Source of the DNA: a virus
Taxonomy: Duplodnaviria > Heunggongvirae > Uroviricota > Caudoviricetes
Length of the DNA: 5,852 bases
Virus record (IMG/VR): IMGVR_UViG_2713896785_000010
Strand: one strand, 5' to 3'
Shown: positions 2,307 through 5,453 of the stretch, one piece after another
How the letters are laid out: each line of letters begins with the position of its first letter
Numbering within the stretch: the first letter of the stretch is position 1
Translations under genes and position numbers: made by a program
Notes under the pieces: model-generated
What the model was told of the DNA's origin: nothing
The model's database searches: none
Seen by the model: the letters and a program-made list of their open reading frames with translations, nothing else

Positions 2307-2406
2307 ACCCCGTCTCCCGTTATCCGGAAGCTGACAACAATAAAAAGCCACCAGTTAATTCCTGATGGCCCTGATGCATAAACGTCATAATACCTGACTG
2401 TTATGA

Positions 2407-2441: not shown

Positions 2442-2485
2442 CCGATGTGTGTTACATATCATTTCTCCACGGGGAATATCCCCAC

Positions 2486-2536
2486 GCCAGCGCAGACTCT
2501 TTTACCCGTTCTCTTCTGCGCTGGCTCTTTTTTATT
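2486..2536 (+). terminator. Intrinsic (Rho-independent) terminator on the plus strand
   Basis: A perfect 11-bp stem, GCCAGCGCAGA (2486..2496) pairing with TCTGCGCTGGC (2515..2525), with an 18-nt pyrimidine-rich loop, followed immediately by TCTTTTTTATT. A 5-bp GGGGA/TCCCC hairpin lies just upstream (2472..2484). The loop is long for a canonical terminator. Confidence 0.5.
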
Positions 2537-2714
2537 ATGCTGCTGCATTTACCTCTGGCACCAGGCTTTCTATCTCAACACAATACGTGGTACTTCTTGT
2601 AACCAATATCATAACGATTAATCGACATAGAATTTCTCCCGTGTACAGGAACAGAGTTAAAAAGCCGGAACCGGAATCAAATCACAGGATGACCATCTGC
2701 CAGTGGCAGGTCAT

Positions 2715-2741
2715 AAAAAAAAGGCCGCGCCATGCGCAGCC
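2715..2741 (-). terminator. Strong intrinsic terminator on the late (minus) strand, proposed tR' equivalent
   Basis: On the minus strand: GGCTGCGCATGGCGCGGCC, an 8-bp GC-rich stem with one G-U pair and a 3-nt loop, followed by eight Ts (the A8 run at 2715..2722 on the plus strand). It is the first clear terminator downstream of pR' on this strand. A second 5-bp hairpin (2697..2709) follows. Confidence 0.65.
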
Positions 2742-2927
2742 AGAACTCACAAGGAAAATGATAGAAGGAAATAACATTAGTGATGTACGCATGGCGCCTC
2801 CCGCTAAGTTCTGCAATGATCAAACAGAACTCGCTACGTGCCCTTAAAACTCGATCATTTAGCCCCTCCAAGGAGGATTCACCATGCGGTTGGTTTTTTA
2901 ATAAACAGTAAACAAAAAAGTCAAGAA

Positions 2928-3038
2928 TTATTCATTCTGTTCTTTCATCATCGGCCACAGCAATACCACAATGCCGCAGACCAGAGCGCCATCAGTCAGT
3001 ACCAACATTATCCTGCTGGTGAAATCCATCATCACCAT
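2928..3038 (-). CDS. Possible small hydrophobic membrane peptide, 36 aa (MVMMDFTSRIMLVLTDGALVCGIVVLLWPMMKEQNE)
   Basis: Hand-translated minus-strand ORF below the track's length cutoff: ATG at 3038..3036, TAA at 2930..2928. It has a single predicted TM helix and a charged C-terminal tail. No convincing Shine-Dalgarno upstream, and three in-frame ATGs within the first four codons. It is on the same strand and downstream of the 252-aa membrane protein, upstream of tR'. Confidence 0.3.
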   Translation of the reverse strand: MVMMDFTSRIMLVLTDGALVCGIVVLLWPMMKEQNE

Positions 3039-3171
3039 CACTAAAAGCAGGATCACAACAGCAAGCAGACACAGTTTATAAAACAATGTTCAGAAAACGC
3101 ATTCAGCATGCCTAAGGTTCTATTCCTACGAATAGCCAACTTGCAACTTAAAATATTATTTATGCAGCCAA

Positions 3172-3930
3172 TTAAATTCTGGTCCTTACAATATCAACCT
3201 GAAGATTCTTATCTTGTGCTGATTGATAAATCACAAACCTTTTACTACCTGCATTGAAAGAAGTAGACAAAACCAGACAATTATCATAACGAGCAAGAAC
3301 ATAATACCAACCATCATTATAATTAATCATTTCATATTCTTTCTTAAACTGTGGTTTGTAATATCCTGTCAGAAATGAAAAAAGCCAGAAATATGCCACA
3401 AAAGCAATCATCACAATCTCAAAAAAATGTTTTTTTATAAATGGCTTATCATAGAAGCATGATACCGATAAAAATCGCCCATAAGATCTTATCGAAATTG
3501 TAACCGCCAGCGCAATCGCTGCTGACAGTAGCAAAAGAGGTACCTGAATCTTCTGTCTCAATATAGAAAACTCAATAATTGCCGGCACAAACAATAATTC
3601 CACAGCAAAATAAAGGCGAAATACATTTAGCTCTTGCATAGAATGTTTTCTTTTCACTGCGAAAAAGAATACAACACCAATACCCCAACCGATAAGAAAT
3701 ATAGCAATGACGATAACTGCAAAAAATAAACTTCTGGCAACATCATCAACACCTGCACCTACAATCCACCATGGGAAGCCGTAGTAAAAAGAAGTACCCC
3801 ATCCATAGAAATAAGCACTCCCCCATCCAAGGCATCCCATGTAGGCAATAAAAAGTGAAGAACTCCTGAGCAGCGCACCATCCTTCATAACCACCCCAAT
3901 ACAAGATGATAACATTGGCTTACAACTCAT
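3172..3930 (-). CDS. Uncharacterised polytopic inner-membrane protein, 252 aa (about 5 predicted TM segments plus a roughly 60-aa soluble C-terminal domain); moron between Q/pR' and the lysis cassette
   Basis: Long ORF with no overlapping alternative. Hydrophobic segments include LFFAVIVIAIFLIGWGIGVVFFFAV, VFRLYFAVELLFVPAIIEFSIL, VPLLLLSAAIALAVTISI and FFEIVMIAFVAYFWLFSFLTGYY, with a Gly/aromatic-rich N-terminal region. Spot counts of 60-nt stretches give roughly 27-35% GC here against about 52% in Q. No family recognised from memory. The first ATG (3930) lacks a Shine-Dalgarno; ATG at 3888 (MKDGALL...), preceded by GGGGTGG, is an alternative start. Confidence 0.75.
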   Translation of the reverse strand: MSCKPMLSSCIGVVMKDGALLRSSSLFIAYMGCLGWGSAYFYGWGTSFYYGFPWWIVGAGVDDVARSLFFAVIVIAIFLIGWGIGVVFFFAVKRKHSMQELNVFRLYFAVELLFVPAIIEFSILRQKIQVPLLLLSAAIALAVTISIRSYGRFLSVSCFYDKPFIKKHFFEIVMIAFVAYFWLFSFLTGYYKPQFKKEYEMINYNDGWYYVLARYDNCLVLSTSFNAGSKRFVIYQSAQDKNLQVDIVRTRI

Positions 3931-4077
3931 AACAAAAGCAATTCAATGCCGTCAAGAGGTTACAGGCTAAAAAAACTCTATTACATTGCAGTCAGCATGT
4001 TTACTACACAAATACAATTCAGAGCATAAAAACTACTCGGCGGCAGGTTATTGAGACTCATCAATGACATGTAAAAA

Positions 4078-4125
4078 ACGCCCATTATTGGTGTCAAGTT
4101 TCCCCAAAGTTATTCAAAAAGTCAA
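4078..4125 (-). promoter_or_regulatory. Late promoter pR' with Q-utilisation (qut) site and promoter-proximal pause element
   Basis: The minus-strand sequence TTGACTTTTTGAATAACTTTGGGGAAACTTGACACCAATAATGGGCG is nearly collinear with the lambda pR' region as recalled (TTGACTTATTGAATAAAATTGGGTAAATTTGACTCAACGATGGG). The -35 TTGACT is at 4120..4125 and the -10-like GAAACT at 4097..4102. A -10-like AATAAT at 4084..4089 sits in the early transcribed region, consistent with a sigma70-dependent pause. Similarity to lambda ends a few bases after ATGGG. Confidence 0.65.
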
Positions 4126-4167: not shown

Positions 4168-4791
4168 CTAACGTGTGATCGCATTCAAAATGTTGTCTGC
4201 GATTGACTCTTCCTTGTGGCATTGCACAACCAGAGCGTCATACAGCGGCTTAACAGTGCGTGACCAGGTGGGTTGGGTAAGGTTTGGGATTAGCATCGTC
4301 ACAGCGCGATATGCGGCGCTTGCTGGCATTCTTGAATAACCGACGCCTTTACATCTTCCGCACTCTTTCTCAGCAACTCTCCCCAATTGCTCTGTTTTTG
4401 ATATATCAACCGCACGGCCTGTACCGTGGCAATCTCTGCATCTTGCGCCCGGCGTCGCGGCACTACGGCAATAATCCGCATAAGCGAATGTTGCGAGCAC
4501 TTGCAGTACCTTTGCCTTAGTATTTCCTTCAAGCTTTGCCACACCACGGTATTTCCCCGATACCTTGTGTGCAAATTGCATCAGATAGTTGATAGCCTTT
4601 TGTTTGTCGTTCTGGCTTAGTTCATGCTTACCGCAGAATGCAGCCATTCCGAATCCGGCTTGTGATTGCGCCATCCCCATAGCAGCCATCACATCAGTAC
4701 CGGAAAGAGAGTCAGAAGCCGTGGCCCGTGGTGAGTCGCTCATCATCGGGCTTTTTGGCGAATGAAATTTAGCTACGCTTTCGAGTCTCAT
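4168..4791 (-). CDS. Q: Late-gene antitermination protein Q (lambda Q type), 207 aa
   Basis: The protein [28 protein letters not shown]...[36 protein letters not shown]... matches lambda Q as recalled, including the zinc-binding Cys motif. It is followed by a pR'-like promoter. Confidence 0.95.
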
Positions 4792-5453
4792 GCGCCTTCT
4801 CCCTGTACCTGAATCAATGTGAGGTTTCCGCAGAACACTGCGCCGGTATCTATATACATCTGGTTGGCAAACTTGAGTGGTTTCACTGCTGGCGTATGAC
4901 CAAAGATGAACGTGTCCGCGCCTTTGATTTCTTTCACGATCCCGTCTTGTGAGTTGCTGATTCGTTCGCGGTTCCAGATTACCTGCTGATGATCAACTGG
5001 CTTTCCAAACTCGTATTTATCACAAGGATAATCGGCATGGCAGATGACATATTTTTTTCCTTTACTCACCAGTTCGATGATTAACGGAAGTTCATCTGCT
5101 TTATGGGCAAGAGCTTTAGCCAGAATTTCTTTGTCGTAATCGAGATTAAAGAACCAGCCACCGCCATTAAGCAGCCAGTGATTGACGTTTCCACGCTCTG
5201 ATAAGCCATCAATCATCATTTGCTCATGGTTTCCACGTACAGCTCTGAACCAGGGGAATGTGATTAATTCCAGGCATTCTACGTTCTCTGTACCGCGATC
5301 AACCAAATCGCCCACCGAGATAAGCAGGTCTTTTTTGGTGTCGAATCCTATCGTCTCCAGTTTTTTCATCAGGTTCGTGTAGCATCCGTGCAGATCGCCA
5401 ACTACCCAAATATTTCGGTATTTGCTGCCATCAATTCTTTCGTAGATATTCAT
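4788..5453 (-). CDS. ninI: Ser/Thr protein phosphatase (lambda ORF221 / NinI, PPP-family metallophosphatase), 221 aa
   Basis: Contains the metallophosphatase motifs GDLHG, GDLVDRG and GNHE. It is near-identical to the lambda phosphatase as recalled apart from N-terminal substitutions. Its ATG overlaps the ninG stop (ATGA) and its stop overlaps the Q start. Confidence 0.95.

Follow-up and report, generated by a model that had tools for sequence, protein, structure and literature searches.

A decayed terminator behind a lambda-type late promoter may open a moron cassette to constitutive transcription in lysogens

Lambdoid late promoters are the textbook case of a control that is "always firing, always terminated", and the short terminated RNA can itself regulate, as StxS does. 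Which genes such a promoter serves in a lysogen when no terminator stands between it and a cargo gene is the question raised by the locus described here. It lies in a 5,852-nt stretch of DNA from a virus of the Caudoviricetes (IMG/VR record IMGVR_UViG_2713896785_000010; hereafter the window), where a late antiterminator gene Q and its promoter pR' are followed on the minus strand by an AT-rich cassette encoding a 238-aa inner-membrane protein, and where the proximal terminator tR' expected between promoter and cargo appears as a decayed relic. We propose, with a probability of about 0.55, that loss of this terminator allows both pR' and a promoter of the cassette itself to feed transcription of the cargo in lysogens. 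The underlying premise, already adopted in a first-pass annotation of the sequence, is that pR' fires constitutively in lysogens, its transcripts normally ending at tR', and it is supported by work on Shiga toxin (Stx) phages (PMC7547250).

Q and pR' are of the lambda type. The Q gene (4168..4791, minus strand, 207 aa) matches the Pfam family Antiterm (PF03589, E = 8e-56), and 202 of the 207 residues of its product (98%) are identical to lambda Q. Alignment with lambda, 2B8 and 434 places pR' directly 3' of Q at 4097..4125 (minus strand), and a like module is present in HK97, HK022 and Kapi1. The −35 hexamer TTGACT (4125-4120) aligns with an identical one in lambda, the −10 hexamer GAAACT (4102-4097) with TAAATT. 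The 17-nt spacer, TTTTGAATAACTTTGGG, is a putative Q-binding element whose lambda counterpart, TATTGAATAAAATTGGG, is in the region bound by lambda Q; the spacer shares 13 of 17 positions with lambda and 15 of 17 with HK97, HK022 and Kapi1. TTGACT-17-GAAACT directly behind Q is thus the arrangement of a lambda-type promoter. Positional homology to lambda predicts the transcription start site (TSS) at C4090/A4089 and a pause region covering 4073..4090 (minus strand). The latter contains a −10-like σ70 pause element, AATAAT (4089-4084) plus GGG (together 4089-4081), which aligns with AACGAT plus GGG of lambda and probably induces pausing, a role carried over from knowledge of lambda; by this alignment the pause element of the lambda-type module would be present as well. 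All variants at loci with a lambda-type pR' (class A) have AATAAT or AACAAT here, with A at position 2 and T at position 6 invariant, and −35, spacer and pause element are conserved across 71 related loci. The −10 hexamer varies among relatives between GAAACT, TAAATT and TAAGTT, GAAACT being found in most class A loci. Similarity to lambda and about 20 other lambda-Q phages ends at 4088-4081, about +9, in keeping with the first-pass annotation, which had put pR' at about 4090 and the end of lambda similarity just after an initially transcribed ATGGG. We also observed a T6 tract at 4078-4073 (minus strand), corresponding to +12..+17 from A4089 and thus located exactly at the predicted σ70-dependent pause (+16/+17). 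A T5-6 tract is retained in all class A leader variants; lambda has GGGTTAATT at this place.

The search for a terminator behind this promoter combined a consensus scan with a discriminant based on hairpin energy and T tract, computed for each T-rich tail of the transcript. Between 4090 and 2741 on the minus strand the consensus scan revealed no terminator-like site, and the discriminant scan of the leader yielded no positive one, its best value being −15.7. The positive controls all scored above zero (lambda tR', +15; phage 434 leader terminator, +32; HK97, +21; HK022, +5; Kapi1, +9). The first positive site after pR' was found at +1349..+1367 (2741-2723, plus T8 to 2715). Compared with the lambda-type pR' phages lambda, HK97, HK022 and Kapi1 (Dewey, with its pR' mislocated, was left out), whose proximal terminators lie at +30 to +190, the window has no tR' within about 200 nt of pR' and is a real outlier among the phages of this type examined. 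Both scans agree with the first-pass annotation, which had seen no convincing hairpin-plus-U-tract between pR' and the cargo, notably in the interval 3930..4090, had named 2715..2741 as the first strong terminator, and had assigned to the cargo the slot of the lambda 6S leader RNA; this geometry is borne out by the alignment and the terminator scans.

The same annotation had depicted the leader as free of a terminator. This holds in that no credible terminator is present, but a decayed copy at 4046-4028 had been overlooked. The relic (4028..4046, minus strand) reads ACCTGCCGCCGAGTAG-T5 and consists of a 4-bp stem, CUGC/GUAG (4046-4033), and U5 (4032-4028). With a folding free energy (dG) of −2.2 kcal/mol, a z score of −0.69 against shuffled sequences and a discriminant of about −29, it lacks the stable GC-rich hairpin directly before a U tract that defines an intrinsic terminator. 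Its homolog in phage 434 (OL657226) is the leader terminator CCCGCTGCCGAGTGGG-T8, annotated there as ACCCGCTGCCGAGTGGG-T8 at the start of the homology to the window (dG −11.2 kcal/mol, z = −3.7), from which the relic differs by three substitutions and a 4-nt deletion in about 25 nt. The corresponding terminator of an Escherichia albertii prophage is intermediate (−4.4 kcal/mol), and a chromosomal relative of the cassette, with 57% protein identity, keeps a GC stem upstream, ACCCGCTGCCGGGCG-T7, of −5.2 kcal/mol, which is no better than shuffles. Because the E. albertii copy is intermediate and the 57%-identical relative retains a copy, the intact upstream terminator appears to be the older state; most likely, therefore, the cassette came with an ancestral upstream terminator that was eroded in the lineage of the window. 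In three viral contigs the leaders are recombinant, being lambda-type up to the relic and 434-type just downstream, and exchange must therefore have occurred inside the leader itself.

Could the leader stop polymerase by other means, so that a short RNA resembling 6S or StxS is still made and the cargo depends on Q for transcription from pR'? Candidate signals are the relic with its U5, a second weak hairpin with a distal T7 (3994-3969; T7 at 3975-3969), and an action of Rho or H-NS on the leader, which is about 200 nt long, untranslated and AT-rich. Each of the two U tracts is preceded by a weak hairpin, and changes of the C4046-G4033 to U4045-A4034 type preserve, by compensation, the 4-bp stem of the relic. 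However, neither hairpin is more stable than shuffled sequences (z = −0.01 for the second one), their discriminants (−16 for the second one) contrast with the positive values of all controls, and the T7 tract stands 7 nt from its stem. Because C stays below G throughout (15% C and 22% G over the leader, with no window in which C exceeds G), the leader is unlikely to load Rho. Covariation support for structure is likewise absent: among eight sequence variants no conserved secondary structure of the leader was detected (alifold covariation term 0.02), and a conserved leader structure or attenuator was rejected as a candidate, with one compensatory pair only and a whole-leader fold at z = +0.26 against shuffles. 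We consider termination of this non-canonical kind improbable.

Transcription from pR' would thus first meet a strong signal at 2715..2741 (minus strand), an intrinsic terminator with an 8-bp GC stem, a loop of 3 and T8 (dG −15.2 kcal/mol, z = −3.6, discriminant +52), which stands at a constant distance in both cassette classes and, judged from its sequence, acts as the effective tR' of this phage. A second terminator-like hairpin with a T tract follows at 2339..2369 (minus strand; discriminant +19.9), just upstream of the holin gene. According to our proposal, polymerase starting at pR' (about 4089) in the absence of Q would pass the leader unstopped and produce an RNA of about 1.37 kb that spans the cassette and has its 3' end at 2715-2723. 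The terminators at 2741-2715 and 2369-2339 would still hold the lysis genes off, and Q-modified polymerase would read through both after induction. The promoter of the cassette would represent a second, pR'-independent source of transcript, to which read-through from pR' would add without being the sole driver.

That the cassette has a promoter of its own is suggested by the region at 3906..3955 (minus strand), identified by consensus scan and by conservation across contexts. Two overlapping promoter-like units are present, of which the first consists of TTGACG (3955-3950), 18 nt and TATGAG (3931-3926), and the second of TTGTTA (3935-3930), 18 nt and TGtTATCAT (3914-3906). In five contexts, namely the window, 434, an enterotoxigenic Escherichia coli (ETEC) plasmid, an Stx-like prophage and a chromosomal island, TTGACx lies at −67 to −70 relative to the start codon; TTGTTr stands at −47 in three of them, followed after 17-18 nt by a good −10-like hexamer, and at −57 in the Stx-like prophage. 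In one relative the junction starts about 20 nt upstream of TTGACG. The hexamers, conserved at fixed distances in five contexts, may represent the promoter expected of a moron; the other attributes of a moron are present, namely a terminator of its own (2741-2715), atypical composition (low GC content) and variable presence (434 and 2B8 versus lambda, HK97 and HK022). A side observation concerns TTGTtatgagTTGT (3922-3935, minus strand), which fits the CII-site consensus marked by the annotators of 434 over the cassette promoter. We set a CII site aside as a candidate: the ETEC relative does not preserve the sequence, and the distance from it to the −10 element falls short of that between CII site and −10 in lambda pRE.

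These promoter elements are the core of the strongest competing explanation, according to which the locus is an ordinary self-contained moron with its own promoter (3955-3906) and its own terminator, pR' adds little, be it weak, stalled at the pause or the T6 tract, or damped in the AT-rich leader, and loss of the leader terminator was neutral and without effect on regulation. The hexamers keep their distance from the start codon in contexts devoid of any pR', such as ETEC plasmids and chromosomal islands; the cassette evidently travels with its own putative promoter and works behind an intact terminator in 434-type phages; and STM1630, a Salmonella member of the cargo family, has its own mapped TSS and −10 box. 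In addition, most class A loci have the weakened −10 hexamer GAAACT in pR', and the divergence of the relic resembles that of the adjacent 52 nt (about 15%), as expected under drift. On the other hand, phage 2B8, which has an arrangement identical to that of the window, uses GAAACT in its only late promoter, so this promoter has to support reasonable activity, in the presence of Q at any rate; conservation extends to −35, spacer and pause element; and with the proximal terminator kept in four of four other lambda-type pR' phages, its loss in a lineage present in about 10% of E. coli genomes is unusual. We regard a purely self-contained moron as possible but doubtful.

Several of these observations also weigh against a role for pR' read-through, together with others. 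GAAACT matches the −10 consensus at 3 of 6 positions and lacks the −12 T, so that pR' may be weaker than that of lambda, and the T6 tract coincides with the predicted σ-dependent pause and could affect polymerase escape. The relic hairpin with its preserved stem and U5 could still terminate some transcripts. An AT-rich cassette such as this one is what H-NS typically targets, and bridged H-NS can block elongation; effects of Rho or H-NS on the 200-nt untranslated AT-rich leader could thus reduce read-through. The discriminant has the form given by d'Aubenton-Carafa in 1990 and is validated by the above controls alone. Finally, for prophage Sp17 of E. coli O157:H7 Sakai, where ECs3501 is Q and ECs3500 the cargo gene, a text search of the literature gave no mention of either gene, and ECs3500 is absent from the supplements of Tree et al. 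2014 (PMC4104026), in which ECs3499 and EcOnc06 do appear.

The last two designations refer to the region just 3' of the cassette, where late-strand RNA is abundant in uninduced Sakai cells, a point in favor of our proposal. EcOnc06 is an Hfq-bound small RNA (sRNA) of about 177 nt seen in uninduced cells, and ECs3499, a spurious open reading frame lying over it, collected 128,136 antisense versus 14 sense Hfq reads (PMC4104026). The abundance of EcOnc06 is no proof of read-through because this RNA is a discrete species of about 177 nt and may be transcribed from a promoter of its own. We noted in this respect a promoter-like site, TTGACT-18-TAAAAA, at 2895-2924 of the window (minus strand; TTGACT at 2924-2919), where transcripts initiated about 5-9 nt further on would be about 177 nt long, as reported for EcOnc06.

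Since the promoter elements of the cassette are kept in contexts without pR' and STM1630 has its own TSS, expression in lysogens is expected with or without read-through. Q-independent expression of the cargo in lysogens is therefore likely on the sequence evidence and does not require pR', whose contribution is a prediction. The first-pass annotation had derived such expression from geometry alone; the position of the cargo between pR' and the first convincing terminator stands, but the presence of promoter-like elements in the cassette weakens the inference. The opposite outcome, in which read-through and the internal promoter are both ineffective and the cargo is silent in lysogens, being expressed as a late gene after induction like stx2, strikes us as very unlikely. 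It would fit the moron insertion site between Q and the lysis genes, which is that of stx2, and the frequent silencing of AT-rich acquired genes by H-NS. Yet no terminator separates the constitutive promoter from the gene, the promoter elements are conserved, members of the family are kept on plasmids and chromosomal islands free of phage late control, and a decayed prophage, Sp17, still holds the gene intact and identical.

How widespread is the arrangement? An exact 32-mer from the 5' flank of the cassette matched 112 viral contigs, 71 of which have a lambda-type pR' together with the relic and 41 a Q82-type pR' together with an intact terminator, with a few recombinants among them. In complete E. 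coli genomes the lambda-type junction, with a coverage of at least 80%, turned up in 572 of 5426, mostly at an identity of at least 99%, including many strains of O157:H7, O26, O103, O111 and O145. Phages 434 and 2B8 carry the cassette, the identity of arrangement in the latter extending to GAAACT; lambda, HK97 and HK022 lack it. The terminator-less allele is thus stable and common. Over the interval from Q to the DUF3927 gene that follows the cargo gene, both included, Sakai prophage Sp17 and the window do not differ; prophage Sp4 of the same strain lacks the cassette. Window position x has its Sp17 counterpart at x + 3,483,727 of NC_002695.2 (minus strand), which places the predicted pR' start at about 3,487,816-7. 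With none of the repressor, N, O and P genes annotated and with several insertion sequence elements and type III secretion effector genes, Sp17 (locus L131, 16100-40292) is a decayed prophage in which Q, pR' and the cargo gene are still intact and identical to the window.

It is tempting to speculate, tentatively and at odds that we would not put high, that the loss of tR' was adaptive and turned a constitutive, Q-poised late promoter into a promoter of lysogenic conversion. In every lysogen, the pR' transcript of about 1.37 kb would then deliver the cargo protein (TfpB), the DUF3927 protein and, by 3' processing, an Hfq-binding sRNA of the STnc100/EcOnc06 type. Such transcription might override silencing of the AT-rich cargo by H-NS, the terminator of the cassette would assume the role of tR', and Yersinia, with another type of Q, may have reached a like solution independently. 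In Y. enterocolitica (L136, 1844-2501, and a second locus, L137), a TfpB gene of 45% identity is located 280 nt behind a PF06530-type Q; the gap contains a promoter-like site, TTGACC-18-TATATT, and no terminator scoring above zero. Yersinia may thus represent an independent case of the same arrangement.

Comparison with known systems helps to delimit what is new. The lambda pR'-6S RNA-tR' unit shares with the window the nearly identical Q, the −35 hexamer, the 17-nt spacer length, the pause element at +1..+6 and the position right after Q; however, lambda transcription ends at about +190 to give 6S RNA, whereas the first credible terminator of the window is at about +1350, past two protein genes and an sRNA-like element. 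The pR'-StxS-tR'-stx unit of Stx phages (Sy et al. 2020, PMC7547250) resembles the window in its constitutive late promoter, in the moron site between Q and the lysis genes and in the sRNA elements 3' of the cargo. There, however, tR' is located 258 nt from pR' and upstream of the cargo, which yields the sRNA StxS and keeps stx2 Q-dependent (PMC7547250); the window has no such terminator. Phage 434 (OL657226) carries a cassette that is 98.4% identical, including the promoter-like region, the DUF3927 gene and the downstream terminator, but it combines a Q82-type Q/pR' with an intact leader terminator where the window has a lambda-type pR' and the relic. Sakai Sp17, identical from Q through the DUF3927 gene, likewise has convergent sRNAs 3' of the moron; these are a canonical STnc100 and AgvB (AgvB2) in Sakai, as opposed to sub-threshold STnc100-like and Esr41-like elements in the window. 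In the description of this layout by Tree et al. 2014 (PMC4104026), convergent sRNAs flank a moron insertion site; the missing tR' of Sp17 is not discussed there.

The components of the locus, namely the lambda-type Q/pR', the moron site between Q and the lysis genes, STnc100/EcOnc06 and the 434 cassette, are already known. Our literature search found no description of a lambda-type late promoter with a decayed proximal terminator that places cargo in the constitutive unit. Classical lambdoid morons, such as bor and lom of lambda, are units of promoter, gene and terminator that are insulated from phage transcription in the lysogen. The cassette of the window is similar to them in its AT richness, its presence or absence among related phages, its promoter-like elements and its strong terminator, but differs in that a constitutive phage promoter points directly into it and its upstream insulator has decayed.

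If our proposal is correct, the same promoter can be used for cargo expression in lysogeny with lytic control unchanged. About one tenth of complete E. coli genomes have the allele, O157:H7 Sakai and other enterohemorrhagic serogroups among them. On our proposal, the state of the terminator, intact or decayed, would be a simple sequence criterion for predicting expression of Q-proximal cargo in uninduced pathogens. The biological weight of the finding is reduced because the cassette has its own promoter-like region, and should pR' contribute little, this would be an ordinary moron and a minor finding.

Nothing about the cargo supports a role in phage defense. The gene (3172..3888, minus strand) starts at ATG 3888, where all 21 aligned homologs begin, with lengths of 237-238 aa; the start at 3930 chosen in the first-pass annotation has to be abandoned, as that ATG falls inside a promoter-like hexamer. 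The product belongs to Pfam family PF27470 (TfpB), called "STM1630 family protein" in RefSeq and restricted to enterobacteria. PF27470 was present in 108 of 108 homologs, similarity to family members extends over the full length, and an alignment of 22 sequences has 44 invariant columns. In PHROG it corresponds to family 1521, annotated as "unknown function". The AlphaFold model (predicted local distance difference test score, pLDDT, 66) suggests about five transmembrane helices and a small C-terminal β domain. Searches of the protein against Pfam and NCBIfam profiles gave no match, the Pfam version searched being one without the PF27470 model; PADLOC matched neither protein of the cassette at E ≤ 0.1, and Foldseek of the cargo model against PDB returned nothing below E = 0.09. 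The earlier designation as a defense gene thus finds no support, in that PADLOC had no match and the fold search was uninformative. We rejected the "TfpB" of the literature as the same protein since those papers treat type IV pili, and a literature search for "TciB", a name given to relatives of the second cassette protein, found nothing relevant.

As to the neighbors of the family, a protein-pattern scan of genome contigs detected three close relatives only, and more distant contexts were obtained by a separate search for encoding contigs. On ETEC plasmids, relatives adjoin the toxin genes for LT and STb (eltAB, STb); the neighbor is sseJ in Salmonella and lpxR in Citrobacter rodentium as well as in prophages, and another relative is found in an Stx-like late region after tRNA genes. 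PF27470 genes thus recur beside horizontally acquired virulence loci. Salmonella STM1630 has been studied for its up-regulation in macrophages, with no phenotype reported. Family neighbors and macrophage induction of STM1630 suggest a role in host interaction or the envelope and not in phage defense.

Downstream of the cargo gene, what had been recorded as an open reading frame of 36 aa is the DUF3927 gene (2928..3086, minus strand), annotated at 52 aa with a TTG start in 434, 2B8 and RefSeq. It encodes a small membrane protein designated "TciB-like" (Pfam PF13064, PHROG 1470), with a score of 53 bits compared with the Pfam cut-off of 25. The 206-nt non-coding 3' region at 2712..2917 (minus strand), of which the strong 2741-2715 terminator is a part, resembles STnc100/EcOnc06; it scores 37.5 bits for STnc100 (RF02076), below the gathering score of 47, and by position and partial sequence it is best read as a diverged relative. 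The counterpart in Sakai Sp17 is a clear STnc100 (144.7 bits), matches the northern probe for EcOnc06 and is convergent with AgvB (96 bits).

The general layout of the window is that of a lambdoid late region. On the minus strand, a NinG-like gene, a NinI-type phosphatase gene (4788-5453) and Q are followed by the AT-rich cargo region and by genes for a class II holin, endolysin and Rz and a Rha-like gene; the cargo has a GC content of 29-38%, its flanks one of 46-53%. Masked runs of N at 2220-2269 and 1929-1978, inside the holin and endolysin genes, and single ambiguous n's at about 1180-1230 in the Rz region make the integrity of the lysis genes only partly checkable. On the plus strand, an Esr41-like sRNA element at 2446-2535 (32 bits, far below the gathering score) has a long hairpin and a T6 terminator and is convergent with the STnc100-like element, in the place taken by AgvB in Sakai Sp17. 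A 132-aa "hypothetical protein" of RefSeq (2449-2847, plus strand) overlaps both sRNA-like elements and is probably spurious, as is ECs3499.

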